From Bacillota bacterium (GTDB lineage Bacteria > Bacillota > Clostridia > Acetivibrionales > DTU013), in contig JAEXNT010000011.1 in assembly GCA_023439545.1 (NCBI GenBank), positions 139,659 through 203,658 of the forward strand: 64,000 bases of DNA, read 5' to 3'. Each line of letters starts with the position of its first letter. The stretch's first letter is position 1. Of the stretch, positions 4,031-64,000 are shown one piece after another. Position numbers and translations under genes: made by a program. The notes beneath the pieces were generated by a model. The model saw only the letters and a list, made by a program, of their open reading frames with translations, was not told the DNA's origin and made no database searches.

Positions 4031-6520
4031 CTAATACCCTTCGTATACGAGCACCTTGAAGAGATATCTTCCGTCGGCAGTCTTCAGCGCCTTACTGATA
4101 AACGGACGCGTAATGAACAAATATTTCATCGATATCTCGGCCTCTACCCGAACATATGTCGAACTGTCCGTCATTCTGAAACTGCCTCTGCTTTTTTCGA
4201 GGTTCAGCTGTATCAGATCTTCGATCCTGTCGAGCTTTTTATTCTCGTCCACAGTAAGCAGGAATAGTCTCAAATAATCATGATAATTGAAATACAATCG
4301 TTTATCCGTATTAGGACCGGTTTGAGCGGGAATGCCTATATCAAGCTTCCAGTCGCCTTTCATTTTATAGATCGGGACTGATTCGCCCTGCATCAGGTCA
4401 GTGATATCTATTATCGCTTCGCCCATACCCCAGCCGCACATTATAAGGTTGGACAGGATAGGTATGCCTGCCCCTCCGGTCCACCAACCTGCGACTGCCG
4501 TTGCGACGCCGGTAGCCATCGACTTCTTTTTGGGATCGGTATAAACGTGGAGCGTATCGAGTCCGAACCTGACAAGCAGCACTTCACCCTTCGTCATTAT
4601 GCTATTTAGCTTTTGCGAAGGCTGCCCATGCAGTATGTACTCGGCTTCACCGTCATAGAAGGTATCGATTTTTCCTTTTTCGTTCCCGTGAAGATTTATA
4701 TCCTTTTCAGTACCGCTCCCGCTCTTCAATTCGGGAACGGCATTTTTAAAGCTTCCCATTATGTATTCATTAATATAGATATTATCCCTTAAGGCTGTAA
4801 GGTCTTCTCCCATCCTTTTCCCGATGTCTGAAACGAATCCGAGCACATTTTCCTGGAACATTCCATCCTCGTTATAAAGGTCCGCTTCCTCCCCTATATT
4901 CCCCAAGCAGCCGCCATATTCCACCGAGCCCCCTGAAGCCTCCGGAACCGAGCCGCCCTTTTTACCGAGCCCCAACAACTCCTCATCTTCCTTATCGAAA
5001 CTCGGAGTCGGTTTTTTAGTAACTGAAGGAAGGTCATTTTTCGATATCCCGGCTGTTTCATAATTGACATCCTGGAGGAGCTTCTCGGTAATGAATTTTC
5101 TCACGGCTTCTGCCTTGCCTTCTCTTGGATCCTCCTTTTCTCCGTCCCTGGCAGGCCTGAAATAATCATAGTCGACCTTGTAATAACCTTTTATCGTATC
5201 GAGCAACCCGGGAGGCAGGATAATATCGCCTATGTATCCCGTTCCTTGTCTGGCTGAATCGAGCTGTGACGCCACATCCTTCAGGAGCGAACTGTTGGAT
5301 CTCACATCTTCAAGTATTTCAGCTGCTTTCTGTCCGTCCAGTATCAATTGCTTCAACCCATCAAGCTCACTCTGCGTCCGTTCTCTGAAATCGGTGGAAA
5401 AAGCTCCGGCTTCGCCGGTAAAGTTTTCGCTGAGATATCCTTCGAGACCCTTAATAGCTTCCTGCGCTTTCCTTCCCTTCTCCGCTATGGCTTCCACCTC
5501 AATGACCGCGTCTTCGTTTTTCCCAATAAAGTCCTGTGTCAGTGAATTTCGCAATTGATCGAATACATCGCTCATTTCGTCTTCAGTGTCGTCGATGCTG
5601 TCCTCCAGCGACGAGCGTTCCTCCATCAGGCTACTCAGCGCGCTTTCCAGTGCATCGAGTGCGCTGCCGGAATCCGATCCGGAGCTGCTATCCGATCCGG
5701 AGCCCGTATCTCCGGTACCGCTACCCGATGCATTCCCTGCACTGCCACCCGTCTCCGTTCCCGGACTACTTTCCGAACCAGTGCTTTCCAGTTGCGATAT
5801 CTGCGACTCAAGCTCGCTGATATTGCTTTCTACGGAACTCAGGCTATTTTTCGCCGATGTCATGGCATCCTTGAGCGAATTGAAGCTTTTGAAAGCCGAC
5901 TCCCAACTGCCGTTCATATTGAAGCCGTTTATGAATTTCTCCGCGCTGCTTCCTAGGCCGTCGACCAGCTTCTTGAGCTTTTGCTGCGACTTATCCATCT
6001 TGCCGAGCAGTTTGTCTATTCCTACCTTTTGCTTGTACGCCCCGGACATTTTCCCAACATCCTTCACTGCGGAGAGTTTTTCGACAAATCCTTCGACCAA
6101 TTCCGCAGGCGCCCTGTATTTCATATATTCCAGTATCTGCTTCTTTGTGACATCGTTTTCACTGAGATTGAATACGGGAGTAACGCTTATCCTCTCGATC
6201 CTGAAGCCGAACAGGTCCGCGCTTCCCTTGTAGAAATCCTCCCCTGCCGGAATCGACAGATTGCAAGTAAGGTTTTCTTCGAAACAGTCCTGAAGACCGG
6301 CTTGATCATTTACCGTTATCGCAAAGATACCATAGTCATCTTTCAGCCTGCTGCCATAATCGGCAAGCAACGCTTTGGCCGCCGTATCTACAGCCCTTTT
6401 TACTATTGCCTTGCCGGCACTGATCCGCGATACGTCGACAAGCACTCCTGCCAATATCAGAAGAGCCGGAAGTAAAATAGCGGCAAACACTGTTACCTGG
6501 CCCGATCGTCCGTTTTTCAA
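4031..6520 (-). CDS. Large TadG-like (Tad N-terminal domain) protein, 829 aa
   Basis: N-terminus GQVTVFAAILLPALLILAGVLVDVSR resembles the TadG/Tad_N motif. Central coiled-coil and Ser/Gly-rich region. TTG start preceded by GGGGGT. Confidence 0.7.
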   Translation of the reverse strand: MKNGRSGQVTVFAAILLPALLILAGVLVDVSRISAGKAIVKRAVDTAAKALLADYGSRLKDDYGIFAITVNDQAGLQDCFEENLTCNLSIPAGEDFYKGSADLFGFRIERISVTPVFNLSENDVTKKQILEYMKYRAPAELVEGFVEKLSAVKDVGKMSGAYKQKVGIDKLLGKMDKSQQKLKKLVDGLGSSAEKFINGFNMNGSWESAFKSFNSLKDAMTSAKNSLSSVESNISELESQISQLESTGSESSPGTETGGSAGNASGSGTGDTGSGSDSSSGSDSGSALDALESALSSLMEERSSLEDSIDDTEDEMSDVFDQLRNSLTQDFIGKNEDAVIEVEAIAEKGRKAQEAIKGLEGYLSENFTGEAGAFSTDFRERTQSELDGLKQLILDGQKAAEILEDVRSNSSLLKDVASQLDSARQGTGYIGDIILPPGLLDTIKGYYKVDYDYFRPARDGEKEDPREGKAEAVRKFITEKLLQDVNYETAGISKNDLPSVTKKPTPSFDKEDEELLGLGKKGGSVPEASGGSVEYGGCLGNIGEEADLYNEDGMFQENVLGFVSDIGKRMGEDLTALRDNIYINEYIMGSFKNAVPELKSGSGTEKDINLHGNEKGKIDTFYDGEAEYILHGQPSQKLNSIMTKGEVLLVRFGLDTLHVYTDPKKKSMATGVATAVAGWWTGGAGIPILSNLIMCGWGMGEAIIDITDLMQGESVPIYKMKGDWKLDIGIPAQTGPNTDKRLYFNYHDYLRLFLLTVDENKKLDRIEDLIQLNLEKSRGSFRMTDSSTYVRVEAEISMKYLFITRPFISKALKTADGRYLFKVLVYEGY

Positions 6521-6535
6521 GTTATTACCCCCATA

Positions 6536-7189
6536 CTATTCCAAGAATTTAGAAAGCCTGTCCTTCATTTCCCTCATAGCATTTCTGGTCTTTTCAGCAA
6601 GGTTTTTCAACCCCGGGAACTTGTTTTCCAGCTTTTTTTCTACATCGAGTATGAAATCGGTCGTCCTGATCAATTCGGCAGGTTCGTCAACCGAGGAAAC
6701 AGCCACAGCAGAGATGTCGATGGTTTCACTTTTTCCGAGAAGCCCGCTCAGGCGTCCCAATGGATTTTTATAACTTTTGCTGACGCTTACGACCAGCTTT
6801 TTATAGATGACATAATCATTCAGTTCGGCTGAAACGGAGGTGTTGACCGGCTTAAGCAATTCATTGCGCGCTGCAAGCTTCAGTGCGTACTCTTCGACGT
6901 CGTCGAGCCTGCTTTCCTCTTCACTGTCAAAAAGCCTTCTATATATTTGAGGCTTTTTGATATCTTCAACGCCCGGTTTTCCTTCAAACGGCACATCCGT
7001 GCCTGAAGACCAGGCCAGAGCGCCCGCCTCCGCCGCACTTTCCGCGGCTGACTGTATCGCCGCCTTCTGCTGCAGCAGAAGCCCCATATATGCAATTGAA
7101 GCAATACAGAGTATTATTACCGGTATGATGATCGACGCCTCGACAGTAATACTCCCCTTGTTTTTTGCGCTTTCGACAATGATCCTCAT
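6536..7189 (-). CDS. TadE-like protein
   Basis: KGSITVEASIIIPVIILCIA motif. Start moved to ATG 7189 (GGAG 9 nt upstream); the ORF-track N-terminal extension lacks an RBS. Confidence 0.65.
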   Translation of the reverse strand: MRIIVESAKNKGSITVEASIIIPVIILCIASIAYMGLLLQQKAAIQSAAESAAEAGALAWSSGTDVPFEGKPGVEDIKKPQIYRRLFDSEEESRLDDVEEYALKLAARNELLKPVNTSVSAELNDYVIYKKLVVSVSKSYKNPLGRLSGLLGKSETIDISAVAVSSVDEPAELIRTTDFILDVEKKLENKFPGLKNLAEKTRNAMREMKDRLSKFLE

Positions 7190-7310
7190 TTGCTTAATCT
7201 CCATATATTTGTATATATTTCCATATTTATACATTTCATTGCTATTATACACCATTATTTGGTAAATATGAAGAAAATAATGAAGAAAATTAAAAAATAT
7301 CGCTCCGGTT

Positions 7311-9281
7311 TTATGAAAGCCTTATGTTTGTAATGTAAAAAGGATATCTCCCAGTAACTTTATCACGGGAAATATAGTTGAAAAGAAATACCGTATCGGC
7401 ATCGCTATCATATGAGACAGCGTTTTGCAGTCCTGCAGCATCCGGCAGCGTATAGGCGCCTTCAACGCCTTCAATTCCATCCTTGCAGCTTTGCCCGGTC
7501 TGATTGGACTCCGCCAAATGAAAGACTTCGAAATGAACTTTTTTGATCGATTGTTTGGGCGTCATGCCTGCAGTTTCAGGAATCAGGGCTTCTATTTTCC
7601 CACTGTCGCGCAGAAATTCAAAATATCTGTCCTGTAAAGCGGGTCTGCCCCTGCTCTCAAAAAATGCAGGCAGTGCGCCCGTATTATCGGATGCGAGAAA
7701 ATCAAGCCGCAGCAGCTCGCGGAACATACTCCGGCTGTTTTCATCCAGTTCTCCTTCGGCAAATCTGTCAAGCACCGTGTAAAACTCGCGAAGCGCCGCA
7801 GGTTTGGCCAGAAAACCGTTTTTCTCGTAAAACCCACGGAAGCTTTCAAAAAAGTCAAACGGAGAACCGAAACCAATTTTTATCAGATAGCCGAGCGAAT
7901 TGACAAAGCGTCCGCTGTTGTAGTATTTGTCCACAAGACCGGCTATGCCTTTCAGCGTCGTCAGTTCCTCATAATTTATATGTTCGCCCGAGAGTATCTC
8001 GTAGGGCGGTACATCCCGATACAGGTATCCCACGGCTTCAGCCGCGCTGCGGCGTGTTGTATGATTTGCGCGGCAGTTAGCTCCGGCCTCCGGACCTGTG
8101 CCCAAGCCCGGCCTTTGATCGGCTTCACGGCGCAGCCGCGTTCCCTTGAGAAATTTCAGGAAGCCAAGCTGCAGCTGATGAGGACCTGCTGAAAACACAC
8201 TGTCGAAAGAGCGGGCGAACGAGCTGTAATCCTCATATGGGAGCCCTGCGATCAGGTCCGCATGGATATGAACATTTCCCGCAGCCGTAAGCCTTTCGAT
8301 ATTTTGGAGCAGCCTTGCAGTATCGGTTTTCCTGCATACCGCAGAAAGAGCTTTTTCATTGGTGGACTGTACCCCTGCCTCTATCTGAATGAGACCCCTT
8401 GGCGAGTGTTCAAGGATTGACATGATTTCATCGTCAAAAAGGTCCGCTCCGACTTCGAAGTGGAAATTACAGCCGGACGAGCCATATCTTCCGGTTATAT
8501 GCTTCAGAAGCAGAGCGGCTCTTTCCCTGTTTGCATTAAATGTCCTGTCAACGAATTTTATCTGCGAAACACCCGATCCAACAAGCTTCTCCAAGTCTGA
8601 AAATATGCGTTTGGTTGAAAAAGTCCTGACCCCTTCCGAAACTGAAGAAAGGCAGTAGCTGCATGAAAAAGGGCAGCCTCTGGAAGCCTCGAAATAGGCG
8701 ATCTTGTTTTTAAGCGAAGCAAGCATTTCATCAGTATACGGCGACGGTATGTCATCCAGGTTTTTCACGAATGCCGGCGGCTTGCTCACGATGCCGGGAG
8801 CAGACCTGAAGGAAAGCCCGTCTATTAAGTCGAAGCCATCGATCGAGGCAATTCCCGTTTTGTCCGCAGAAGCAAGTCCCACCGATAACTTGTTGCAGAC
8901 TAGATGGGCTAATAGCTGAGGAAATGACTTTTCCCCCTCTCCCGCGAGGATAAAATCTATCTGCTCATGTTTTTCCAGCAATTCCCCGGCGTCATACGAT
9001 ACCTCCGGACCTCCCAGAACGATAATCGACCGCGGCAGAAGCTTCTTCAGGTCCGAGACAAGCTCGAGCACCAGACCAATATTCCATATATAGCAGGAAA
9101 AGGCTGTTACGTCAGGCTTATAACGATAGATGCCCTGCAGGATATCCCCGGCATATTCATTTATAGTACGTTCCAATATATCGACAGTCCCGCACTCAGG
9201 GCCGCATGACGCTTTGAGATACCAGGGCGCAAGAGCCGAATGGATATATTGGGAATTCAGCGCAACTATCAGCGTTTTCAT
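7311..9281 (-). CDS. B12-binding-domain radical SAM protein (DUF4080 type)
   Basis: N-terminal B12-binding-like domain, CPFSCSYC radical-SAM cluster motif, long C-terminal domain. Confidence 0.85.
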   Translation of the reverse strand: MKTLIVALNSQYIHSALAPWYLKASCGPECGTVDILERTINEYAGDILQGIYRYKPDVTAFSCYIWNIGLVLELVSDLKKLLPRSIIVLGGPEVSYDAGELLEKHEQIDFILAGEGEKSFPQLLAHLVCNKLSVGLASADKTGIASIDGFDLIDGLSFRSAPGIVSKPPAFVKNLDDIPSPYTDEMLASLKNKIAYFEASRGCPFSCSYCLSSVSEGVRTFSTKRIFSDLEKLVGSGVSQIKFVDRTFNANRERAALLLKHITGRYGSSGCNFHFEVGADLFDDEIMSILEHSPRGLIQIEAGVQSTNEKALSAVCRKTDTARLLQNIERLTAAGNVHIHADLIAGLPYEDYSSFARSFDSVFSAGPHQLQLGFLKFLKGTRLRREADQRPGLGTGPEAGANCRANHTTRRSAAEAVGYLYRDVPPYEILSGEHINYEELTTLKGIAGLVDKYYNSGRFVNSLGYLIKIGFGSPFDFFESFRGFYEKNGFLAKPAALREFYTVLDRFAEGELDENSRSMFRELLRLDFLASDNTGALPAFFESRGRPALQDRYFEFLRDSGKIEALIPETAGMTPKQSIKKVHFEVFHLAESNQTGQSCKDGIEGVEGAYTLPDAAGLQNAVSYDSDADTVFLFNYISRDKVTGRYPFYITNIRLS

Positions 9282-51573: not shown

Positions 51574-51622
51574 TGGCTGCGGGAGAAGGATTTGAACCCT
51601 CACAGACTGATCCAGAGTCAGA
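51574..51622 (-). tRNA. Truncated tRNA: 3' portion only (anticodon arm to CCA), anticodon loop CUCUGGA, so CUG (Gln-like)
   Basis: The T arm (gaggg-ttcaaat-ccttc), the acceptor 3' strand tcccgca, the discriminator G and CCA are all present. No D arm or 5' acceptor strand lies upstream. Confidence 0.7.
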
Positions 51623-51713
51623 ATTCTTTCTTATGGTATATTATTACAACTGTGTACAAGCCTTAATTTTACTGGCTTTTGCTTTTATTACTCTTAATTA
51701 TTTTCAGTAAAAA

Positions 51714-53292: not shown

Positions 53293-53844
53293 CTAGCGGA
53301 AGAGGGTATCCAACCCGGACATATCCAGACCCACAATTTTAAATTTAACGCCTATTTGGGGCAATTTTAGCGGCCTATCAGTGCAAATGATTACAATAGG
53401 TCGGACACCGAATACAGGCAGAAAGTCCATTTTATATTTGTCAAAGTCAAACTGATTGCTGAGATGTACCTCGACCAAAACGGGATAAACCACACCTTTA
53501 TTTCGTATATATGTGAGAGCATCCGGCCGGATATGATCGATTGTAAATTCATTATGCCATTCCAGGATCTCATATATCTGTTTCATAGTTGCATACAGTT
53601 CGGCGCGGATAAGATCATGGTGCAGCTGCTGCAGAAGAGATTTACGCTCCAGATAGTAGGCAAAATCATTATTAATCGTACTCCGGGTACGCTTGACAAA
53701 TCCCTGTTCCGTCAATTTCTGCAACCGGCTCCGGCTATTGCGCGTGATAGTCTCTGCAAAATAAAGTCGGTGAATTTGTGAAGAAGTGGCTACGTGGAAT
53801 TCCTCAAGGAAATTTAAAATATTCTGATCTCGCGTTGTTATCAT
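53293..53844 (-). CDS. Replication-relaxation family protein
   Basis: MITTRDQNILNFLEEFHVATSSQIHRLYF is a Replic_Relax-type N-terminal wHTH. ATGA overlap with the ftsK-like stop. Confidence 0.75.
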   Translation of the reverse strand: MITTRDQNILNFLEEFHVATSSQIHRLYFAETITRNSRSRLQKLTEQGFVKRTRSTINNDFAYYLERKSLLQQLHHDLIRAELYATMKQIYEILEWHNEFTIDHIRPDALTYIRNKGVVYPVLVEVHLSNQFDFDKYKMDFLPVFGVRPIVIICTDRPLKLPQIGVKFKIVGLDMSGLDTLFR

Positions 53845-55082
53845 TTCATCACCTTCTTCAAATACGGATTGATACACTTGCCACGCAATACCTTCATTTT
53901 GGCACGTTTTTCAGATTGGATTTCCTCTGTGGTTTTAAAGGCATTATGCTTTATCAAGATCGATCGTACGTCGTCTGGCTCAATATAAAGGCACTGGACT
54001 TCCTTTATTTCACCGTTGTATTTTATCAGACAGCGGCCCTTATTCTTTATCTGCTCTGCTCCGGCGACGTTTAGTATGACTTCACTGTCCACGTCTGTAA
54101 CGACTTTAAAGGCTAGGCGTGTAGGCATGCAACCTTTAGTACTTCCTGAGATAATTTTTATATCAGGTCTTTGCATGGATACAAGATATAATAAGCCCAC
54201 TTTTCTATCCAGAGCGACACGGACGCGGAATTTATCGAGCAATCCTTCGCTATCGGATATCCGGGAAAACTCGTCTATGATAATAACCTTATAGGGCAAT
54301 GCCTTGCTGGGGTAAAACTTATTCCACACGGCTAGATTTTGAACAAAGCGCTTTTTACGTACGCTGGTAAATAGCTTCAGCCTCCTGTCACTTTCCTGCT
54401 CCATTTCGTCAAGCAACTGTCCGAAGTCCTCCGGTTTCTCACCATATGACCGGACCTTTTTGCAGTCTTGGAAAATACCCAGTTCGACACCCTGGAAGTC
54501 AATCAGGTGCAGATCAATATTATGCCTGCTCAAAATCAGTGACAATATGATCGTTCGTAGGAAGGAGGACTTGCCGGACTTTGGTTCCCCGGCTACGATG
54601 GTTTGTATAGCATCGTCGATGTCGAAATAAAACTTGCCTTCATGAGTATATCCAATAAATACCTCTGTGGGATCCTCGCAGTCCTCGAATTCATATTTGT
54701 AATTCGCCCCGAGGTTCATCTGTGTCAGCTTCATTACAAGGTTTTTATTGAATCCATATTCCACCTTGCAGTTCAAAGCCTGCTCTATTTCCTGCTGCCG
54801 CTGCTCAAAATGCTTCTGCGATATCCCTTCGGGCATATGTATAACAAGGGTATCTTTATCATGCTTTATTACGAGCGGTATCTTATCATCACAAGATTTT
54901 ATCCCGCACTTACGGAACAGTGTTTCAAACCTGTTTTCATGGAGCAGAGCCAATTCGATTCCTGTTATCAAGGCCCCTCCCGCAAGCATCGCAAGAGTAG
55001 TTACTCCCGGCATAAGTATTTGACCTATGCCGCCTATACCCATCAGTATAAGCCCGCCGCCTGTCTTTCCATATCTATCCAT
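53841..55082 (-). CDS. FtsK/SpoIIIE-family DNA translocase (membrane anchored)
   Basis: Walker A GEPKSGKSS, Walker B VIIIDEF, N-terminal TM helices. ATG 55082 lies 6 nt after GGAGG. Confidence 0.88.
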   Translation of the reverse strand: MDRYGKTGGGLILMGIGGIGQILMPGVTTLAMLAGGALITGIELALLHENRFETLFRKCGIKSCDDKIPLVIKHDKDTLVIHMPEGISQKHFEQRQQEIEQALNCKVEYGFNKNLVMKLTQMNLGANYKYEFEDCEDPTEVFIGYTHEGKFYFDIDDAIQTIVAGEPKSGKSSFLRTIILSLILSRHNIDLHLIDFQGVELGIFQDCKKVRSYGEKPEDFGQLLDEMEQESDRRLKLFTSVRKKRFVQNLAVWNKFYPSKALPYKVIIIDEFSRISDSEGLLDKFRVRVALDRKVGLLYLVSMQRPDIKIISGSTKGCMPTRLAFKVVTDVDSEVILNVAGAEQIKNKGRCLIKYNGEIKEVQCLYIEPDDVRSILIKHNAFKTTEEIQSEKRAKMKVLRGKCINPYLKKVMK

Positions 55083-55103
55083 CACACACCTCCGTCCGCG
55101 CCC

Positions 55104-55132
55104 CCGCCTGCTCCACCCTGCTCCGCAGGCGG
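55104..55132. promoter_or_regulatory. GC-rich inverted repeat in the ftsK-like 5' leader (candidate oriT or regulatory hairpin)
   Basis: ccgcctgc-N13-gcaggcgg sits inside an ~80-nt GC-rich patch in otherwise AT-rich DNA. Confidence 0.35.
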
Positions 55133-55223
55133 CACTCCGTGGCTCCCATGAACTTGCTTTTTGCAATGTTTAGTAAAATTACCGCTTGGAAGTCTTATAG
55201 ACTTGCATATCCGTAAAGCCGTT

Positions 55224-58384: not shown

Positions 58385-58942
58385 ATGAATCTTAGTCAGA
58401 TGAAAGAAATTGAAGACTTAAAAGCTCAATTAAGTGCTTCAAGAGATGAATATAGTAAAATATACCAACCTAAAAAGCAAAAGGCTTATAATGAAGTAGT
58501 AAATGGGTTTAAGACATATTTTAAAAATCAAGGTTTCGAAATTCAGGAGACCTCATCATTTGTATATGCAATTTATCGTGATATTAAATTTTCATTAAGC
58601 TTACCGGGAACTGATACAAGCTTTGTTGGCGCTGCTTCAGTATTCAATTTATCTGAGGAGCATAACAAAATAGATAAGCATTCGATAATGATTATTCAAA
58701 AAGGACATAGAACCGGAATACATATTACTTCATCTATATCTCCAAAAACTGAAGATGAAAAATATAAACAAGAAGTTGAAAGTCTAAAAAATAGCATTGA
58801 AGATTCCAAAAAAAACATAGAAGCTATGAAAGATGATGTACTGGTTTTTGGATTAAGGATAGATAATAATAGATCAGGCAGAGAATATGAACAATTTAAT
58901 TCTATGAATGACCTTATTGAACATTTATTTGAATCAAAATAA
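58385..58942 (+). CDS. Hypothetical coiled-coil protein, 185 aa; the only plus-strand gene in the element
   Basis: AAAGGAG RBS. Very AT-rich. An upstream hairpin with T run lies at about 58250-58292. Confidence 0.6.
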   Translation: MNLSQMKEIEDLKAQLSASRDEYSKIYQPKKQKAYNEVVNGFKTYFKNQGFEIQETSSFVYAIYRDIKFSLSLPGTDTSFVGAASVFNLSEEHNKIDKHSIMIIQKGHRTGIHITSSISPKTEDEKYKQEVESLKNSIEDSKKNIEAMKDDVLVFGLRIDNNRSGREYEQFNSMNDLIEHLFESK

Positions 58943-59640: not shown

Positions 59641-59904
59641 TCATCGTTTAAAATTAGTTTCAATGCAATTAATTCCTTTTCCAGAAATTCTATATCTCTG
59701 CTTCGTTTCCCTGACATATCCGTTTCGAACGAGAATCCCTAGCTTTTTCCTAAACTCTTTTTCAGTCATATCAAAATGCGTACTATTATAAAGTGTCTCA
59801 GCCGAGTACGTCCTGTCATAAAGCTGGTAAAGAGTACGTAAAATATAGCCTTCTGAGCTTAATTGAGTAAAATGCTTAATTGCATATTTGTATTTAGTTT
59901 TCAT
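59641..59904 (-). CDS. Small winged-helix DNA-binding protein, 87 aa
   Basis: LGILVRNGYVRETKQRYRISGKG is a wing-like C-terminus. Its own RBS is preceded by the inverted repeat caacaat-N20-attgttg. Confidence 0.55.
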   Translation of the reverse strand: MKTKYKYAIKHFTQLSSEGYILRTLYQLYDRTYSAETLYNSTHFDMTEKEFRKKLGILVRNGYVRETKQRYRISGKGINCIETNFKR

Positions 59905-59960
59905 ACTATTTTCCTCACAACAATATATAAATACATTTTATAACATTGTTGAGAAAGTAG

Positions 59961-59999
59961 TAAAAATGCACAAGGAAGCTTATAACAAAGCTTCCCTGT
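59961..59999 (-). terminator. Intrinsic terminator closing the ArpU-like-led operon
   Basis: 12-bp stem (59970-59981 / 59988-59999) followed on the minus strand by gcaUUUUU. Confidence 0.75.
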
Positions 60000-60013
60000 A
60001 TTATGAGTTACTT

Positions 60014-60997
60014 TTACCCGAATTCTGCAATAACGTTAGAAAGCCCTCTTACATCCGCATCGGTATAGTCGACAATGCCTCTGAAATAAGTCGTACAGTC
60101 GATGTACAGGCCACATCCACCGCCGCTCCAAACCTCCGTTCCTGGGCCATGTCCAGCTTCAGCAAAAAACTTCACTGTCAACGCGTTTCCATGCCAACCA
60201 TTCGAGTACCAGCCGCCAATAGTTATACCGCTTTCAAGCACGGGATCACTGCCTGGATTGACATTGAACATACCACCGTTGAATGAACCGGAATAAACAC
60301 CGTTTTGGTTTATATACGTCGCGTAACCGCTGTTCCTCCATGCCGCTAAAGAAGCGCCCAGCGGGACATACAACTTCTCGTTGAAGGTTTTAGGCTCAGT
60401 TTTGTCCTTGATCAGACGGTGATCAATCAAAGCAATGCCCCGCCTGTCAACCTGGAAAACTGTCATGAAGCCACCAACGGCTTCACACGCCACAGATTCA
60501 TAAGCTTGCAGGAAAAGTTGTTCTAGCGGCATGGTGTTAATATTTTGTTCGATAAAATGTCCGACCTCGGAAGTCGCCATTCCCTCCACCCGCGCTCCAT
60601 CATACCAGAACATGACAGCAAAATCATCATTCGAATTCATGCTGCAGCACACTGGAGCATTACGGGTGTTGTCATAATAGAATATCGCTAGATTGCATAT
60701 AAATGCATTTGCAGGATCAGCGATGTTATTGCCCTGGCAGAAAGCCTTTACTTTGCTTCTGGCTATCCCCTGAAGAGCTTCAATCGTATCGTTGTCCTGA
60801 TGCGCAAATTCAAAAATTACTGCTGCTCCTACCGCTTCAATGCCTGCCGAAAATATCAAACGGCTATGCACGACATGGAGCTTTTGGCCGTCGTCGCCGA
60901 GTCTGCGAAATTCACCATTGGCACACAATGACCTACGGGAATCGGAGGCCACGAATAGTGGGCCTGTATTTGAATAAATGGAAATACAACAACTCAT
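60014..60997 (-). CDS. Two-domain protein: N-terminal proteasome-beta/HslV-like Ntn-hydrolase fold (Cys in place of Thr1) plus a Gly/Trp-rich C-terminal domain
   Basis: By-eye alignment of CCISIYSNTGPLFVASDSRRS...QKL...SAGIEAVGAAV to [21 protein letters not shown]...RKV...GIAGTAAVAV. Not verified by a profile search. Confidence 0.5.
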   Translation of the reverse strand: MSCCISIYSNTGPLFVASDSRRSLCANGEFRRLGDDGQKLHVVHSRLIFSAGIEAVGAAVIFEFAHQDNDTIEALQGIARSKVKAFCQGNNIADPANAFICNLAIFYYDNTRNAPVCCSMNSNDDFAVMFWYDGARVEGMATSEVGHFIEQNINTMPLEQLFLQAYESVACEAVGGFMTVFQVDRRGIALIDHRLIKDKTEPKTFNEKLYVPLGASLAAWRNSGYATYINQNGVYSGSFNGGMFNVNPGSDPVLESGITIGGWYSNGWHGNALTVKFFAEAGHGPGTEVWSGGGCGLYIDCTTYFRGIVDYTDADVRGLSNVIAEFG

Positions 60998-61104
60998 TAA
61001 ATCATCCCTTTCTTTTTAAAAACATCTTTGCTTAAAAGCCGCACGGATAGCCCTCGCAGGGAATCCATGTTCCTGATAGCGCTGCATCAAGCCATACCTG
61101 ACCA

Positions 61105-61512
61105 TTAATTTAACCCTACACTAAGCATGTCTATGAACTGCGAGAACTTGCCGTCCGGTGCAGGAAGCTTCTCTAATTTTTCGCGCTGCTTGCCTAAGAA
61201 TTCGGCAAATTCTACAATCCAGTCCTGCAACAGACTTACAGGCGCGCTCTGAAAAAACCTTTCATCATAACCATAACCATTGACCAGGCTGTGAAAAGGG
61301 GTTTTTGTTGCTTCAAAATTCCCATTGTGCATCAGTTTACAGACATATTTGTCAACGCCGCCATTATCTCTTATGGTCTCGGGGATTTCCTCAAAGCTAC
61401 TGAGGATAGTGGCTTTATCGGTTTTCTGAATGCGTTCTGCTATATCCCAGTCCATAGAACGATAGCCGGTTGTCAAAAGCTCAGTCAGTTCATCTTTGTC
61501 AAGCGCGTTCAT
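61105..61512 (-). CDS. Hypothetical protein, 135 aa
   Basis: Start moved to ATG 61512 (GGAGG 8 nt upstream). C-terminal DWIVEFAEFL resembles DWFEEFAKML of the 139-aa protein. Confidence 0.55.
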   Translation of the reverse strand: MNALDKDELTELLTTGYRSMDWDIAERIQKTDKATILSSFEEIPETIRDNGGVDKYVCKLMHNGNFEATKTPFHSLVNGYGYDERFFQSAPVSLLQDWIVEFAEFLGKQREKLEKLPAPDGKFSQFIDMLSVGLN

Positions 61513-61535
61513 CTGCTCGGCCTCCTGCATCCTAC

Positions 61536-62969
61536 TTATTCCAACTTATAGCTTATTTCCGTCCAATCATGCTCCGGATCCTGCGCGACGTTGCCCACGG
61601 AAAGCCAGTCCTGATATGTGGGACCCCCGATAATACAGGCAACTCCGTTACGTTTACGGAACATTTCCTCAAGGAATAGATTGCTTTTTACCTGCCAGAA
61701 TCTTTGAGGATTGCAGTAATATGCAAAATGTCCGCCACGTTCGCTTTTATAACCCCCATAGACGATTGTGATTTTGCTTCCTCCTTCAGTTTTTTTGCAG
61801 ACAGCACCATCCTCTACTAGCCTTTCAAGTACGCGTGGACTAAGTCCTTCGATATCAAGCCGCCCAGTGTTCCGACATATTTTTAGCTTTATTCCTGGTG
61901 CCGAAGTCGGCTTCGCTTCTGTCGGTGCCCGCCAATTATCCGCAAATTTCATTATTTCAGCAGTTTGCATATCGGTAAACATGAAGCGCATTTGAAGTTC
62001 AGGAAAACTTGCTCCGAGAGCCTTTTTCCCCGCGGCGAGGGCCGATTCAATGATTTTCTGTCTCTCAAAGGGGTCTTCTACCTTCTTTTGAGGTTCTGTC
62101 TTGGGTGCGGGGACTGTGCCGGGGGTGAAGACCTTCCTGCGGTCTGACTTTTTCACCATGGTCAGCAATCCTACATTCGGACTATAAGTGGCTATAACGG
62201 GTTTTGCAGGATCTATATTCTTCAAGTCAGTTACTACCATAAATTCTCCATGGTCATTCTCTACAGTATCCCTAGCAGACATTGACATGACGCCAGCGCC
62301 GGGATAAGCTCCATCAAAGACAATACTATTTTCCCAAAGTGCGGCTGGTGGGTATGCTTTTATCCAGCATAGAGAATCCTTTTCATTCCCGGCAGTATCC
62401 TTGACCTTGTAGGTTTGGCCGGCATAGTGTTCGCAGTCGCGACTTGTGTACTCCTCACCACACACAGAACATATGCCCCGATTAAAACTGAAACCTATAG
62501 ATGTATCAAATAGCGTCCCGGCCTCGATACCTGCAATAAGGTCATCTGTATTTATACCGTCGATTTCCACGCCGCGTTTAATGTAAGTGTCGCTCAAAAG
62601 AGAAACCGTTTCGCCTTCCTCAGTAGGTTCTCCAAAACATGCATCAAAGGTTCTTCCATAGGGGATAGCAGGTTTCGGACGACCGCCTAAACCAAACAGC
62701 CCTCCCGAATGCCAGGAGTGGTCTATCAGGAAGGATACGCCTTTTCTTGCATCCATAGCGAACACATCAAGCGTCTCTCTCATTAGCTGGACATACCGCT
62801 CGGGGATTATCATATCTCCAGTTAATTTTGATGGGAACACGAATACTTCATCGGCGGTCAGCCTACGTTTCGCAAGCTTATTGATTTTTTCAAGTTGTGC
62901 TGTGGTCGGTACACCGAATTCACCCAATTCAATCATCCTTTCCTTTTGGGCGTTCGCCCAAATCTTCAT
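61536..62969 (-). CDS. Prohead-serine-protease-like protein (HK97/XkdF type) with Cys/His insertion, linker and extra C-terminal domain
   Basis: LIDHS (His), DTSIGF (Ser) and LWENSIVFDGAYPGAGV follow the Peptidase_S78-type order. CSVC...CEH...C cluster. Start uncertain (ATG 62969 or 62936). Confidence 0.6.
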   Translation of the reverse strand: MKIWANAQKERMIELGEFGVPTTAQLEKINKLAKRRLTADEVFVFPSKLTGDMIIPERYVQLMRETLDVFAMDARKGVSFLIDHSWHSGGLFGLGGRPKPAIPYGRTFDACFGEPTEEGETVSLLSDTYIKRGVEIDGINTDDLIAGIEAGTLFDTSIGFSFNRGICSVCGEEYTSRDCEHYAGQTYKVKDTAGNEKDSLCWIKAYPPAALWENSIVFDGAYPGAGVMSMSARDTVENDHGEFMVVTDLKNIDPAKPVIATYSPNVGLLTMVKKSDRRKVFTPGTVPAPKTEPQKKVEDPFERQKIIESALAAGKKALGASFPELQMRFMFTDMQTAEIMKFADNWRAPTEAKPTSAPGIKLKICRNTGRLDIEGLSPRVLERLVEDGAVCKKTEGGSKITIVYGGYKSERGGHFAYYCNPQRFWQVKSNLFLEEMFRKRNGVACIIGGPTYQDWLSVGNVAQDPEHDWTEISYKLE

Positions 62970-62984
62970 TTATTTTGCTTTGCT

Positions 62985-63296
62985 TTACTTTCCCGAGTAT
63001 TCCATATCATGCCACTCACGCAGCCCATGCCTATCAAGTTCGTTGGTAGAGAACATGTCATAGATTGTGCAATTAAGTTGGCCGTTTGGCCATATCCCTG
63101 GATAGTCCTGGTTAAACAGAGTACACAGTGTAGGGTTGGGTGTTACGGAGAACGTCGCTAGATTTGCATAGTACTTTACCCCATTTCCGGCCTCGCCTCG
63201 GGCTATAATACCTTCATTTACGAATTCTTGAAGCTGCGTCTCGCTCAAACCTCCAGTATCCAGCCTGCCGGATCTTTTACATATTCTGAAAATCAT
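62985..63296 (-). CDS. Hypothetical protein, 103 aa, sharing a motif with the C-terminal domain of the 477-aa protein
   Basis: ICKRSGRLDTGGLSETQLQEFVNEGII compared with ICRNTGRLDIEGLSPRVLERLVEDGAV. Confidence 0.6.
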   Translation of the reverse strand: MIFRICKRSGRLDTGGLSETQLQEFVNEGIIARGEAGNGVKYYANLATFSVTPNPTLCTLFNQDYPGIWPNGQLNCTIYDMFSTNELDRHGLREWHDMEYSGK

Positions 63297-63712
63297 AACG
63301 CTTTCTCGCTTTCAGTTAACATTTTTGCAAACTCTTCAAACCAATCACAAAAACTTTCCGTGTCCTTTTCAAAAATTAAAATGAGAATATCATCAGCCGG
63401 CTTGACTAAATCGTTGTCAAATGTCCTTCCCTTGATTAATTCGTCGATGCTTTTGTTGTCTCTATTATCTCTGTAAAACTCTAGAAAGCCCTGAAAAATC
63501 AGTGAAAACGGTACATCATCAAAGTCGCCATAGTTCACCATATCCGTGAAATATCTATGGTTATGGTTGCCTAAGAACATAATTGATAGATCCTCTGGCT
63601 CAATAACACAATTATCCTTGAATTTCCTGATCTCTTCTGGGGTCATAGAAACAGCGTGCGGCAACCGGGCCAGTTTCATCTCTTTGAATTGTTTGTCCAT
63701 CTTATTTCTCAT
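63293..63712 (-). CDS. Hypothetical protein, 139 aa
   Basis: ATGA overlap with the downstream gene. No family recognised. Confidence 0.55.
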   Translation of the reverse strand: MRNKMDKQFKEMKLARLPHAVSMTPEEIRKFKDNCVIEPEDLSIMFLGNHNHRYFTDMVNYGDFDDVPFSLIFQGFLEFYRDNRDNKSIDELIKGRTFDNDLVKPADDILILIFEKDTESFCDWFEEFAKMLTESEKAL

Positions 63713-64000
63713 CCTCTCTCATCCATTCCAACATCGATTTTATCTTTCTGCAGTCTTCTAAATTGATCTGGACTATAGTGATCATTTTTTGTAATGCTCT
63801 ATCGCGGCAACAATTTAAGGCTCGTGGGCTACATTTCAGTTCCTGGGCTATTACTTTCCACGTCTTATAGTGGAAATATTTCTGTTCAATCAGTAAACGC
63901 TCTTGCCGGTGTAATGCTCTGACTCCGATATCGATTTTCATGATTATAGCACTGACCAGCAAAATATCTTGCTGTATTTTTTCAATTTCTTCTGTAATCC
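63702..64000 (-). CDS. Sigma-70 region-4 / ArpU-like transcriptional regulator (5' end outside window)
   Basis: ERLLIEQKYFHYKTWKVIAQELKCSPRALNCCRDRALQKM is a region-4 HTH pattern. The frame stays open to the window edge. Confidence 0.6.
   Translation of the reverse strand, partial: ITEEIEKIQQDILLVSAIIMKIDIGVRALHRQERLLIEQKYFHYKTWKVIAQELKCSPRALNCCRDRALQKMITIVQINLEDCRKIKSMLEWMREDEK

Follow-up and report, generated by a model that had tools for sequence, protein, structure and literature searches.

The block of six co-directional genes at the end of the window (the whole 64,000-nucleotide stretch analysed) is read here as, probably, a PICI-like phage satellite's late operon that acts as a helper-exploitation or interference module through an inferred mechanism. 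This reading draws on (i) the anatomy of the element, (ii) an orphaned head protein whose homologues lie in head modules at 86 of 86 other loci, (iii) a recurrent gene order that includes a gene for a proteasome-like Ntn domain joined to a fibre-type domain (Ntn-fibre), and (iv) the retained invariant residues, proteasome catalytic pattern, and fibre-tip homology of the encoded proteins. Two of the five genes behind the activator derive from phage virion-module families. The Ntn-fibre gene recurs in other satellite-like elements, a role for it not having been described before.

Operon Organization and Genomic Context

An ORF scan places the block on the minus strand between a sigma-region-4-like activator gene and a terminator. 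In transcriptional order it comprises the 3′ part of the activator gene (63702 to the window edge at 64000), genes for a 139-aa (63293-63712) and a 103-aa protein (62985-63296), a 477-aa maximal ORF (61536-62969), a 141-aa maximal ORF (61105-61530; 135 aa from an internal ATG), and a 327-aa gene (60014-60997). Two junctions overlap, by 11 nt (63712/63702) and 4 nt (63296/63293), and gaps of 15 and 107 nt within the block follow from the ORF coordinates. The operon is closed by an intrinsic-terminator-like hairpin and T-run (59959-60000, minus strand), of which the hairpin (60000-59969) has 13 pairs and a 6-nt loop and lies 14 nt past the stop of the 327-aa gene. These coordinates agree with the original prediction of six packed genes with two overlaps, an edge-cut sigma-like gene, and a strong terminator. 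All operon ORFs are intact and tightly coupled, and identical copies occur on three to five contigs.

Beyond position 64000 (locus L001) lie genes for a helicase, a primase, a small HTH protein, and an integrase, with no portal, capsid, or terminase gene found there. The replication module, a primase and a DnaB/AAA_25-type helicase with 9-nt-spaced iterons, is intact. Terminase, portal, capsid, tail, and lysis genes are absent from the block and from the region directly upstream, including the 5 kb beyond 64000, as are capsid, portal, terminase, tail-tube, and lysis genes from the element as a whole. The gene arrangement around the block is that of a PICI-like phage satellite; the earlier proposals that it belongs to an integrated element and is not a head-morphogenesis block are borne out by the integrase, primase, iteron-bearing helicase, and phage-type late activator found in place of structural genes. 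A small terminase, a cos/pac site, and a known capsid-size gene were looked for in the element and not found, and no helper phage was identified. Prophage-like genes, including a lysis region, adjoin the integrase; on the same contigs, no homologue of the 477-aa or 327-aa protein is detectable among them. FtsK_SpoIIIE and Replic_Relax genes are located 5-7 kb downstream of the operon, inside the same candidate att-bounded region. The element may reach ~17.7 kb and take in these FtsK-like and relaxase-like genes, which point to conjugative mobilisation as an alternative or additional transfer route.

Activator and Small Proteins

The activator fragment (63702-64000, minus strand) is the 3′ part of an ORF open at the window edge, the product of which is a phage late transcriptional activator of the sigma-70-region-4-like type. 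Complete, the gene encodes 177 aa (L001 8702-9235), and its product matches PHROG 36 and 248, both “transcriptional regulator/activator”, with E values of 5e-8 and 1e-6, respectively. Matches to Sigma70_r4_2, RinA, and ECF are weak and all under the curated cut-offs. The activator and its sigma-like counterpart in the satellite-like locus L090 share 33% identity.

The three small proteins were originally described as ORFans with shared motifs. None of the 139-, 103-, and 135-aa proteins matches a Pfam, NCBIfam, or PADLOC family at meaningful E values. The shared motifs hold for one pair: the 103-aa protein (62985-63296, minus strand) is a separately encoded paralogue of the domain at the C-terminus of the 477-aa protein (BLASTP E 2e-6 with 37% identity across 35 aa; 31% identity along the full length). 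The 139-aa protein (63293-63712, minus strand), the gene of which overlaps both the activator and 103-aa genes, resembles the 135-aa protein only marginally (E 0.02-0.04). Among 5.8 billion proteins, the 103-aa protein has no homologue except itself. The 135-aa protein (61105-61512, minus strand) would have 141 aa if taken from the upstream ATG at 61530; the ATG at 61512 has the better ribosome binding site (AGGAGG 8 nt ahead) and is the start used by the public gene call.

The 477-Residue Head-Module Protein

The product of the 477-aa ORF (61536-62969, minus strand) is an orphan phage head-module protein; it belongs to the head maturation protease/scaffold family and bears an additional domain at its C-terminus. 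The public gene call starts at ATG 62936 (466 aa), and a start at TTG 62924 (462 aa) yields MGEFGVPT, which matches the N-termini of homologues; judged from these features, one of the two is likely the real start. The protein has 424 homologues, most of which cover only the N-terminal ~56%, where identity to phage copies reaches 70%. In all 86 other loci whose contigs extend far enough, a portal and/or major head gene adjoins the homologue (portal matches in 78, major head matches in 69, with PHROG identities assigned). The original prediction was to fall if homologous loci always lay in complete head modules; these 86 do lie in head modules, and the window locus is the exception, with replication genes and an integrase beyond 64000.

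The N-terminal globular domain (residues ~17-270; 62160-62921, minus strand) is modelled by AlphaFold with a pLDDT >90 for residues ~20-220. An alignment with 62 phage homologues reveals invariant His84, Ser157 (in TSIGF), and a Cys167/Cys170/Cys179/His181 cluster, and every family-invariant residue is retained in the 477-aa protein. By hhalign, the protein is homologous to the “head maturation protease” of Enterococcus phage fHoEfm07 (probability 99.3%, E 1e-20). Fold searches with the domain return BFVD matches with E values from 1e-9 to 1e-4, some named prohead or capsid maturation protease, and no match in the PDB. The HK97/XkdF type first proposed for this domain is not sustained: membership in Pfam Peptidase_S78 or S78_2 was not found, and hhalign gives no link to Peptidase_S78. 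What stands is a prohead-protease-like family, indicated indirectly by synteny, by the folds of protease-named phage proteins, and by a homologue that is annotated as a head maturation protease; the protease activity itself is known only from annotation.

A helical segment (residues ~298-352; 61914-62078, minus strand) has its counterpart in the helical region at the C-terminus of the phage homologues. It forms three helices (pLDDT ~94), aligns with the block conserved at the C-termini of the phage proteins, and is a candidate scaffold or capsid-targeting part. The extra C-terminal domain (residues ~358-477; 61539-61898, minus strand), which is paralogous to the 103-aa ORF, is missing from all phage homologues, which stop near the equivalent of residue ~355-375. 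Its low pLDDT is due to this lack of homologues.

The 327-Residue Ntn-Fibre Protein

The N-terminus of the 327-aa protein (residues 1-205; 60383-60997, minus strand) is confidently predicted to adopt a proteasome beta-subunit fold with an intact Ser/Asp/Lys/Gly active-site pattern, in agreement with the Ntn domain first proposed from the sequence. The AlphaFold pLDDT is >90 and mostly 93-98, and Ser2, Asp19, Lys39, and Gly52 correspond to proteasome Thr1/Asp17/Lys33/Gly47. Against the PDB, Foldseek finds 560 matches below 1e-3 (best 6tu3_K, E 7.6e-10), with the top 50 all being proteasome subunits, and a profile of the Ntn family matches proteasome beta6 (E 2.8e-6). Nearly all of the 113 remote homologues align from at or near their own N-terminus, and S2, D19, K39, G52, and G175 are invariant. 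A Pfam Proteasome match occurs in 3 of 40 family members.

The C-terminal fibre-type domain (residues ~216-327; 60017-60352, minus strand), for which AlphaFold confidence is low, is homologous to the C-terminal regions found in tail-fibre-type proteins of phages. It has 16 homologues that share this domain only (39-57% identity); one carries Pfam Prophage_tail, and two are encoded on podophage-like contigs directly after the tail adaptor and nozzle-like genes. The sole Ntn-fibre member in a cultured phage, Psychrobacillus phage Perkons, resides in the phage’s own tail module. The few named relatives of the 327-aa protein are Bacillota-associated.

Related Loci

Ntn-fibre relatives are found in three other satellite-like elements (L090, L100, and L128) and one capsid-forming element (L102). 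The recurrent order is a replication module, a sigma-like activator, zero to six genes, and the Ntn-fibre gene. L128 encodes a primase, D5-type helicase, sigma, a 114-aa protein, and the Ntn-fibre. L090 contains the parts of the recurrent order, but with the Ntn-fibre gene before the sigma-like gene. L100 harbors an integrase, a cI-like repressor, a PHROG 36/248 activator, two orphan Peptidase_S78 head proteases, a TerS-like gene, and the Ntn-fibre. In L102, the Ntn-fibre gene follows the TerL gene of a set that includes portal, protease, major head, HNH, TerS, and TerL.

Co-occurrence of the two large proteins had been proposed for examination. Across this handful of loci, the conserved pair is instead the sigma-like activator and the Ntn-fibre; a head protease stands beside that pair outside a capsid module only in the window locus and L100. 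The head protease has no counterpart in L090 and L128 and is therefore not essential to the module. The phage contig L106 encodes a protease 61% identical to that of L100, together with a distal tail protein that shares 38% identity with the L100 fibre over the fibre's C-terminal part, which suggests, from sequence similarity, that one helper lineage can be the source of both satellite genes.

Proposed Function and Alternatives

The operon would be switched on by its activator when a helper phage of matching type replicates. The protease/scaffold variant would then enter helper procapsids via its phage-like parts and, once inside, either remodel assembly or carry in the extra domain and its 103-aa paralogue. 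By means of its fibre tip, the Ntn-fibre could join or act on helper virions or the cell surface, with the Ntn head as the putative source of hydrolytic or ligase-like activity. The net outcome would be spread of the satellite at a cost borne by the helper. Of the accessory functions originally named, satellite interference fits best; defence and toxin activation are not supported, with PADLOC finding no defence system in the block. The original preference for an accessory role over virion assembly goes too far, since each of the two large proteins comes from a virion-module family, in one case of head proteases/scaffolds and in the other of fibres with the Perkons member in a tail module.

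A rather unlikely alternative is that the block is cargo of the island, an interference or abortive module directed against phages, with no gain in transfer. The free protease would mis-process capsid or scaffold, and the fibre-tip-targeted Ntn hydrolase would degrade or poison phage fibres. Both large proteins do combine a phage-like with a foreign part, as in a decoy, L100 carries two stand-alone protease domains (188 and 207 aa) without a capsid gene, and satellites and PICIs carry phage-blocking genes that, in the abstract of PMC11364771, include tail-assembly inhibitors (Tai). However, PADLOC gives no match, the 477-aa protein keeps all of its family-invariant residues, and the tail-module location in Perkons renders the Ntn-fibre compatible with a virion part. 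A late operon behind a phage-type activator, the TerS-like neighbour in L100, and the full capsid-forming module in L102 also suit particle formation.

It is improbable that the block is a decayed prophage remnant with leftover, now functionless head and fibre genes. The presence of only two virion-related genes, the missing packaging genes, and the lysis region by the integrase fit decay, whereas the intact, coupled, terminated operon, its identical copies, the intact iteron-bearing replication module, and the invariant catalytic-type residues in both families do not; moreover, the compact order persists in four loci whose Ntn domains have diverged to 27-37% identity, with the Ntn-fibre gene ahead of the sigma-like gene in L090. 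Least probable of all is an accessory operon of an integrative mobilisable/conjugative element with the fibre-like Ntn hydrolase as mating adhesin or cell-wall-opening factor, as the nearby FtsK_SpoIIIE and Replic_Relax genes might indicate; conjugative transposons, too, carry sigma-region-4-like regulators. However, L090, L100, L128, and L102 have the operon without such genes as FtsK or relaxase, the relatives found are phage- or satellite-linked, the head-module protein is left unexplained, and the 327-aa protein, as read from its sequence, opens with the Ntn nucleophile segment (MSCC...), which leaves no space for an N-terminal signal peptide.

Comparison with Known Systems

The element read here as a probable satellite resembles PICI/SaPI-type satellites, which are defined by five core components in de Sousa et al. 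2023 (PMC10085698), in its terminal integrase, small regulator, primase-helicase module with iterons, late operon, lack of a virion set, and 10-18 kb size. It differs in having no detectable small terminase or cpm/ccm-type capsid-size gene and in encoding a sigma-like late activator of its own, a fibre-like protein, and an orphaned homologue of the head proteases/scaffolds. That paper describes tail components as essentially confined to phages. Capsid-forming cf-PICIs are approached by L102, with its related Ntn-fibre and head and terminase set, while the window element is without portal, capsid, and terminase; a keyword look-up in the accessible cf-PICI literature, including PMC10085698, gave no sign of an encoded fibre.

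Tai systems are found in PICIs as well as in prophages and P4-like satellites, with examples including E. coli phi80, and the abstract mentions no enzymatic fibre (PMC11364771). By description, and with no sequence relationship apparent from that abstract, the likeness lies in genes borne by satellites and directed at how other phages assemble their tails. SaPI CpmB and SaPIpT1028 Rcm are satellite proteins that mimic the helper scaffold and compete to redirect capsid assembly (PMC12409344). By analogy, the 477-aa protein may share this capsid-binding logic; however, CpmB and Rcm are small and helical with no enzyme domain, whereas the 477-aa protein, known from sequence, is a whole protease-plus-helical protein with a new domain.

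Like fHoEfm07-type head maturation proteases, the 477-aa protein has a globular N-terminal domain in which His and Ser are conserved, followed by a C-terminal helical block. Its phage homologues are flanked on one side by the major head gene and on the other by a gene for a portal or head-morphogenesis protein, whereas it is orphaned from the head module in a satellite, bears an extra C-terminal domain, and is not detectably Peptidase_S78. Lambda C/Nu3 and P2 gpO are likewise fusions of a head protease with a scaffold-like part at the C-terminus.

Fuchs et al. 2021 (PMC8665760) described the proteasome-like “Firmicute clusters” FC1-FC5, of which FC4 (representative WP_076223917.1) has C-terminal domains resembling phage tail proteins and is given no function, reliable model, or phage/satellite link. 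The 327-aa family shares with FC1-FC5 an Ntn domain with Ser/Thr1-Asp17-Lys33-Gly47 and no propeptide and, by description, most closely resembles FC4.

Operon organization and boundaries

The operon is compact and terminator-bounded, and all six minus-strand ORFs of the original prediction were found at the positions it had given, with overlaps of 11 and 4 nt and intergenic gaps that agree with the ORF coordinates. In order of transcription, the genes are (i) an activator that extends from 63702, is still open at the window edge, and reaches 177 aa in L001, an ENA contig with the same locus that continues past position 64000, (ii) a 139-aa gene (63293–63712), (iii) a 103-aa gene (62985–63296), (iv) the 477-aa gene (maximal ORF 61536–62969), (v) a fifth gene (maximal ORF 61105–61530), and (vi) the 327-aa gene (60014–60997). 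A 13-pair hairpin followed by a T-run (minus strand, 60000–59969) lies 14 nt past the last stop codon. For the fifth gene, a 135-aa product from ATG 61512 is the best reading, with AGGAGG 8 nt upstream of this codon. The start of the 477-aa gene is most likely TTG 62924, located behind GGAAAGGA, because this codon yields MGEFGVPT, the N-terminus of the homologues; the public gene call starts at ATG 62936 and gives a 466-aa version. A perfect 7-bp palindromic hairpin (TTTGGGCGTTCGCCCAAA, plus strand; 62945–62962) is found between the 103-aa gene and this likely start, inside the 5′ end of the maximal ORF.

The activator shows similarity to the transcription-regulation families PHROG 36 (E 5e-8) and PHROG 248 (E 1e-6), and its matches to Pfam Sigma70_r4_2 (E 0.05–0.08) and NCBIfam RinA (E 0.02) all fall below the cut-offs. 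The five downstream proteins have no meaningful Pfam, NCBIfam, or PADLOC match, and the intergenic regions of the operon share no promoter-like motif. Two other genes are found near the operon. One, directly past the terminator (59641–59904, minus), encodes an 87-aa protein that is winged-helix-like and has a promoter-like site of its own; the other encodes a 185-aa protein (58385–58942, plus) that matches PHROG 14564 and 22061, both of unknown function, and weakly Phage_scaffold (E 0.007).

The 477-aa protein

The 477-aa protein has 424 homologues with up to 70% identity, most of them aligning over the N-terminal ~56% only. Scans of genome contigs returned no locus with a single-protein query and only six with an alignment query; the genomic neighborhoods sampled comprise 86 further loci, drawn from IMG/VR, from GTDB genomes, and from a single metagenome. 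All 86 have a portal and/or major head gene beside the homologue (78 and 69 loci, respectively), and the missing partners correspond to contig ends; portal, major head, and TerL genes were identified through PHROG 3753, 3922, and 2. The window is the only locus at which neither gene accompanies the homologue. An ordinary head module is ruled out by the lack of a portal or capsid gene within 10 kb.

Homology and the position of its phage homologues between the portal and major head genes place the protein in a phage head maturation protease/scaffold family. Its N-terminal half matches two PHROG families of unknown function (PHROG 16951/37798 group, E 4e-19). Enterococcus phage fHoEfm07 has a homologue that bears the annotation "head maturation protease" and is encoded between head morphogenesis and major head genes, and hhalign of the family against this protein covers both the globular and the helical parts (probability 99.3%, E 1e-20). 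The AlphaFold model is confident at residues 20–220 and 300–350. A Foldseek search of the PDB with the whole model gave nothing significant and matched no protease structure, and a sequence-profile search of the PDB likewise returned nothing; phage-protein models in BFVD match the fold with E 1e-9 to 1e-4, and several of them are named prohead or capsid maturation protease. The HK97/XkdF-type assignment of the original prediction is not borne out, as Peptidase_S78 and S78_2 give no match to the protein (E up to 1) or to 62 homologues (E up to 0.1); hhalign of the family with an S78 protease, a weak test with a single-sequence template, gave a probability of 0.2%.

The invariant residues of the family, namely His84, Ser157 (in TSIGF), and a Cys/Cys/Cys/His cluster, are all kept, and the protein therefore does not resemble a dead decoy. 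Its assignment as a head-module protein is supported, and it is probably a protease with a scaffold-like tail, the putative protease activity being assigned by annotation. After the conserved helical block, it carries ~120 extra residues that occur in no phage homologue. The free 103-aa protein and this extra domain are paralogues (local E 2e-6; 31% identity over the full length), and a search of 5.8 billion proteins detected no further relative of the domain.

The 327-aa protein

The proteasome-like Ntn fold proposed for the 327-aa protein proved correct by model, structure search, profile, and Pfam. Residues 1–205 are predicted by AlphaFold with pLDDT above 90 (mostly 93–98), and Foldseek retrieves proteasome beta subunits from the PDB with E down to 7.6e-10 (560 PDB hits below 1e-3, target-normalised TM 0.6–0.7), as expected for a proteasome beta-subunit fold. 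The Ntn family profile matches a proteasome beta subunit among PDB sequences with E 2.8e-6, and three of 40 family members reach Pfam Proteasome. The proteasome-like family is characterized by a Thr/Ser1-Asp17-Lys33 triad and a Gly47 oxyanion hole (Fuchs et al. 2021, PMC8665760); the equivalents here are S2, D19, K39, and G52. Ser2, Asp19, Lys39, Gly52, and Gly175 are invariant among the 28–40 family members compared.

An exhaustive HMMER search with residues 1–212 identified 113 remote homologues, in nearly all of which the alignment begins at, or close to, the protein's own N-terminus. They continue into fibre-like C-terminal parts of very variable length and are referred to here as Ntn-fibres. 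A word-based search with the 327-aa protein found relatives of the C-terminal ~110 residues only. These tip-domain relatives form the C-terminal ends of fibre-like proteins from phages; Pfam Prophage_tail is present in one of these proteins, and two are encoded directly after tail adaptor genes on podophage-like contigs. On one podophage-like contig (L093), a reverse transcriptase gene (RVT_1, 5471–6517) lies in the structural region just upstream of the tail adaptor and tip-domain fibre genes and may belong to a diversity-generating retroelement acting on a tail gene.

Fuchs et al. 2021 (PMC8665760) distinguish Firmicute clusters FC1–FC5 of proteasome homologues and report that the C-terminal domains of FC4 resemble phage tail proteins, giving no function and no phage link. 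The Ntn-fibre family is probably FC4 or a neighbor of it, on the basis of features that agree by description. As judged from sequence, both large proteins of the operon are chimeras in which a phage virion-module part is joined to a part absent from phage homologues.

Distribution of Ntn-fibres

Gene neighborhoods are given here for the loci with sufficient flanking sequence. Ntn-fibres occur in other integrase-bearing elements. The locus L090 (Ntn domain 35% identical) encodes an integrase, cI/cro-like HTH genes, Rep_O, a primase-helicase, a homologue of the 92-aa gene that lies upstream of the operon in L001 (56%), the Ntn-fibre, and a sigma-like gene (33%). L128 (37%) has a primase, a D5-type helicase, a Sigma70_r4 protein, a 114-aa gene, and the Ntn-fibre, and its integrase is 35–46% identical to that of the window element; this locus has no terminal overlap and thus no sign of a circular form. 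L100 (27%) is a 10-kb integrase element with a cI-like repressor, a PHROG 36/248 activator, two orphan Peptidase_S78 head protease genes (PHROG 80), a TerS-like gene (PHROG 1066), and the Ntn-fibre, and no portal or capsid gene; at 6232–8605, its S78 genes (188 and 207 aa) flank the TerS-like gene and a 202-aa protein of unknown function. From the gene orders of these three loci and the window element, the recurrent unit consists of a replication module combined with a sigma-like activator and an Ntn-fibre. The fibre closes the same-strand gene run in the window element, L128, and L100, and precedes the sigma-like gene in L090.

Other settings include L102 (Ntn domain 27% identical), where a portal, protease, major head, HNH, TerS, and TerL set like that of capsid-forming PICIs comes before the Ntn-fibre with two small genes in between, an island (L101), and a phage (L096) in which the Ntn-fibre gene lies upstream of the terminase, outside the tail genes. 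ORF185 of Psychrobacillus phage Perkons (L098, 8986–11631) is an 881-aa "putative tail fiber protein" encoded after the tape measure and tail proteins. Its N-terminus reads MSS...ASDT...SK, and it is the only detectable Ntn match in 50,697 GenBank phage records; the 2026 Perkons paper does not mention its proteasome-like domain. Scans of JGI metagenomes and IMG/VR yielded no close relatives of the Ntn domain, and Ntn-fibre elements seem to be rare in current phage collections.

A head protease encoded outside a capsid module and together with the fibre is found only in the window element and L100, which use two different protease families. The phage contig L106 encodes a protease that is 61% identical to that of L100 as well as a distal tail protein that shares 38% identity with the C-terminal part of the L100 fibre, so that the two satellite genes of L100 can come from one helper-type lineage. 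This pattern of a single phage type is seen in L100/L106 only. For the window element, an IMG/VR scan with the fibre-tip domain gave one weak locus, on no contig with a protease homologue, and no common helper for its two proteins was found. One identified phage type as the source of both was dropped: the tip relatives are podophage-like, and a typical locus of the 477-aa homologues (L002) belongs to a long-tailed phage, as indicated by its tape-measure gene.

The surrounding element

Upstream of the operon, L001 continues with the rest of the activator, the 92-aa gene, an AAA_25/DnaB_C helicase (418 aa, E 1e-30), a CHC2 zinc-finger primase (Zn_ribbon_DnaG, 168 aa, E 6e-9), and small HTH genes, and its opposite strand encodes a 265-aa protein without a family match and a tyrosine integrase (Phage_integrase, 422 aa, L001 3777–5045), ~3.7 kb past the window edge. 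Four TAGTC-containing repeats with 9-nt spacing at the helicase gene's 3′ end (L001 8075–8124) look like candidate origin iterons of the element. Genes for a portal, capsid, terminase, tail, or lysis function are absent from this upstream region.

Five core components of a phage-inducible chromosomal island (PICI) are listed in de Sousa et al. 2023 (PMC10085698), and the element matches two and possibly three of them: (i) an integrase, located at the element end, (ii) a replication module, provided by the primase and helicase, and (iii) possibly a capsid-morphogenesis gene. The last is the 477-aa gene, a candidate by position and ancestry that is unrelated to known cpm/ccm genes. As to regulation, a 58-aa HTH protein (weak LacI-type match) faces the 265-aa protein beside the integrase, and the genes there show no AlpA, MerR, or Stl match. 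Searched against Pfam, PHROG, and NCBIfam with E values as high as 1, no operon protein matches TerS. The portal, major capsid, head-tail connectors, and terminase of a capsid-forming PICI are absent within 10 kb on either side. The element has the anatomy of a satellite.

A 13-nt direct repeat, TCTCCCGCAGCCA, is present at L001 3619–3631, 146 nt outside the integrase gene, and at L001 21351, which corresponds to window 51574–51586 (minus). It occurs once in the window against 0.01 expected by chance; by our estimate, a repeat-pair scan returns a chance match of this kind about one time in ten. A tRNA-like T-arm, GGTTCAAATCC, precedes the right-hand copy, and a CCA-type sequence and a hairpin follow it (window 51574–51650, minus; L001 21290–21363); ARAGORN calls no tRNA there. 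This copy probably represents the attR of a tandem array located at the 3′ end of a tRNA whose intact form would lie past the neighboring prophage-like region. If both repeats are the element ends, the element spans ~17.7 kb including a low-GC part (GC 0.33–0.41) between the operon and host genes. This part encodes an FtsK_SpoIIIE-like protein (413–441 aa) and a Replic_Relax relaxase-like protein (183–194 aa; window 53293–55166, minus), and resembles a mobilisation module that lies nested within, or was added to, the satellite-like element. Homologues of a 90-aa gene near the right end are present in L090 and L128, which supports its membership of the same element type.

Outside the integrase, L001 1–3700 carries a Peptidase_M15 endolysin fragment and a holin-like 102-aa gene (PHROG 18218), followed by a 275-aa protein (weak HEPN_Apea match) and a 253-aa bPH/SHOCT protein. 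This region is possibly a neighboring prophage with the same att core; no homologues of the 477-aa or 327-aa proteins were detected on contigs of this prophage-like end.

Proposed function and alternatives

The operon is, with somewhat better than even confidence, a satellite operon for helper exploitation or interference; far less confidence attaches to any single step of the mechanism. The activator would switch the operon on late during helper infection. The protease/scaffold variant may enter helper procapsids via its conserved parts and there either alter assembly or carry in the extra domain and the 103-aa paralogue, while the fibre tip may join helper fibres or bind the cell surface. 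The Ntn head would act in putative hydrolysis; ligation is a possible alternative because connectase, which belongs to the same superfamily, is a protein ligase (PMC8665760). Against this satellite reading stand the lack of a TerS gene or pac/cos site, the lack of an identified helper, the presence of FtsK and Replic_Relax within the same candidate att-bounded region, and a protease activity assigned by annotation only.

A more speculative extension, which is on balance unlikely, is that the pair of sigma-like activator and proteasome-like fibre serves as the signature module for a Bacillota phage satellite group not yet described. By analogy, the Ntn head could serve as a connectase-like ligase or targeted hydrolase that grafts the satellite's receptor-binding tip onto, or cuts, a helper virion or cell-surface protein; here, the module would be joined with a pirated head protease/scaffold that brings a new domain into helper capsids.

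Among the alternatives to a helper-exploiting satellite operon, pure interference or defence cargo fares best and is still rather unlikely; the matches of the operon proteins in PADLOC-DB v2 are at noise level only (E above 0.05). Catalytic-type residues are kept in both large proteins, and a decayed prophage remnant is improbable. An accessory operon of a conjugative element, the reading to which the FtsK- and Replic_Relax-like genes relate, is very improbable, and L090 and L128 contain no such mobilisation module. A toxin-activation or defence system, which the original prediction had entertained, was rejected given no PADLOC match and a phage-type late operon context.

Relation to known systems

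Phage satellites steal capsids and tails. Satellites as such are already known, and so, separately, are scaffold mimicry and the proteasome-like Firmicute clusters. Three features appear to be undescribed in the literature searched: (i) a proteasome-like fibre as a recurrent, in most cases terminal, gene of satellite late operons, (ii) orphan head proteases in capsid-less satellites, and (iii) the particular chimera found in this element. No satellite-encoded fibre is described in the literature consulted. The orphan head protease/scaffold with its added domain, together with the different protease family in L100, suggests that capsids may be hijacked, or cargo loaded, by a route not described so far. 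An enzyme-headed satellite fibre, if real, would be a new way for a satellite to steer its own destination or cripple its helper, and under the signature-module reading a capsid-less satellite could itself select the cells it targets or put its helper out of action. Such a fibre would also place in a biological context, for the first time, one of the proteasome-like clusters for which Fuchs et al. 2021 reported no function.
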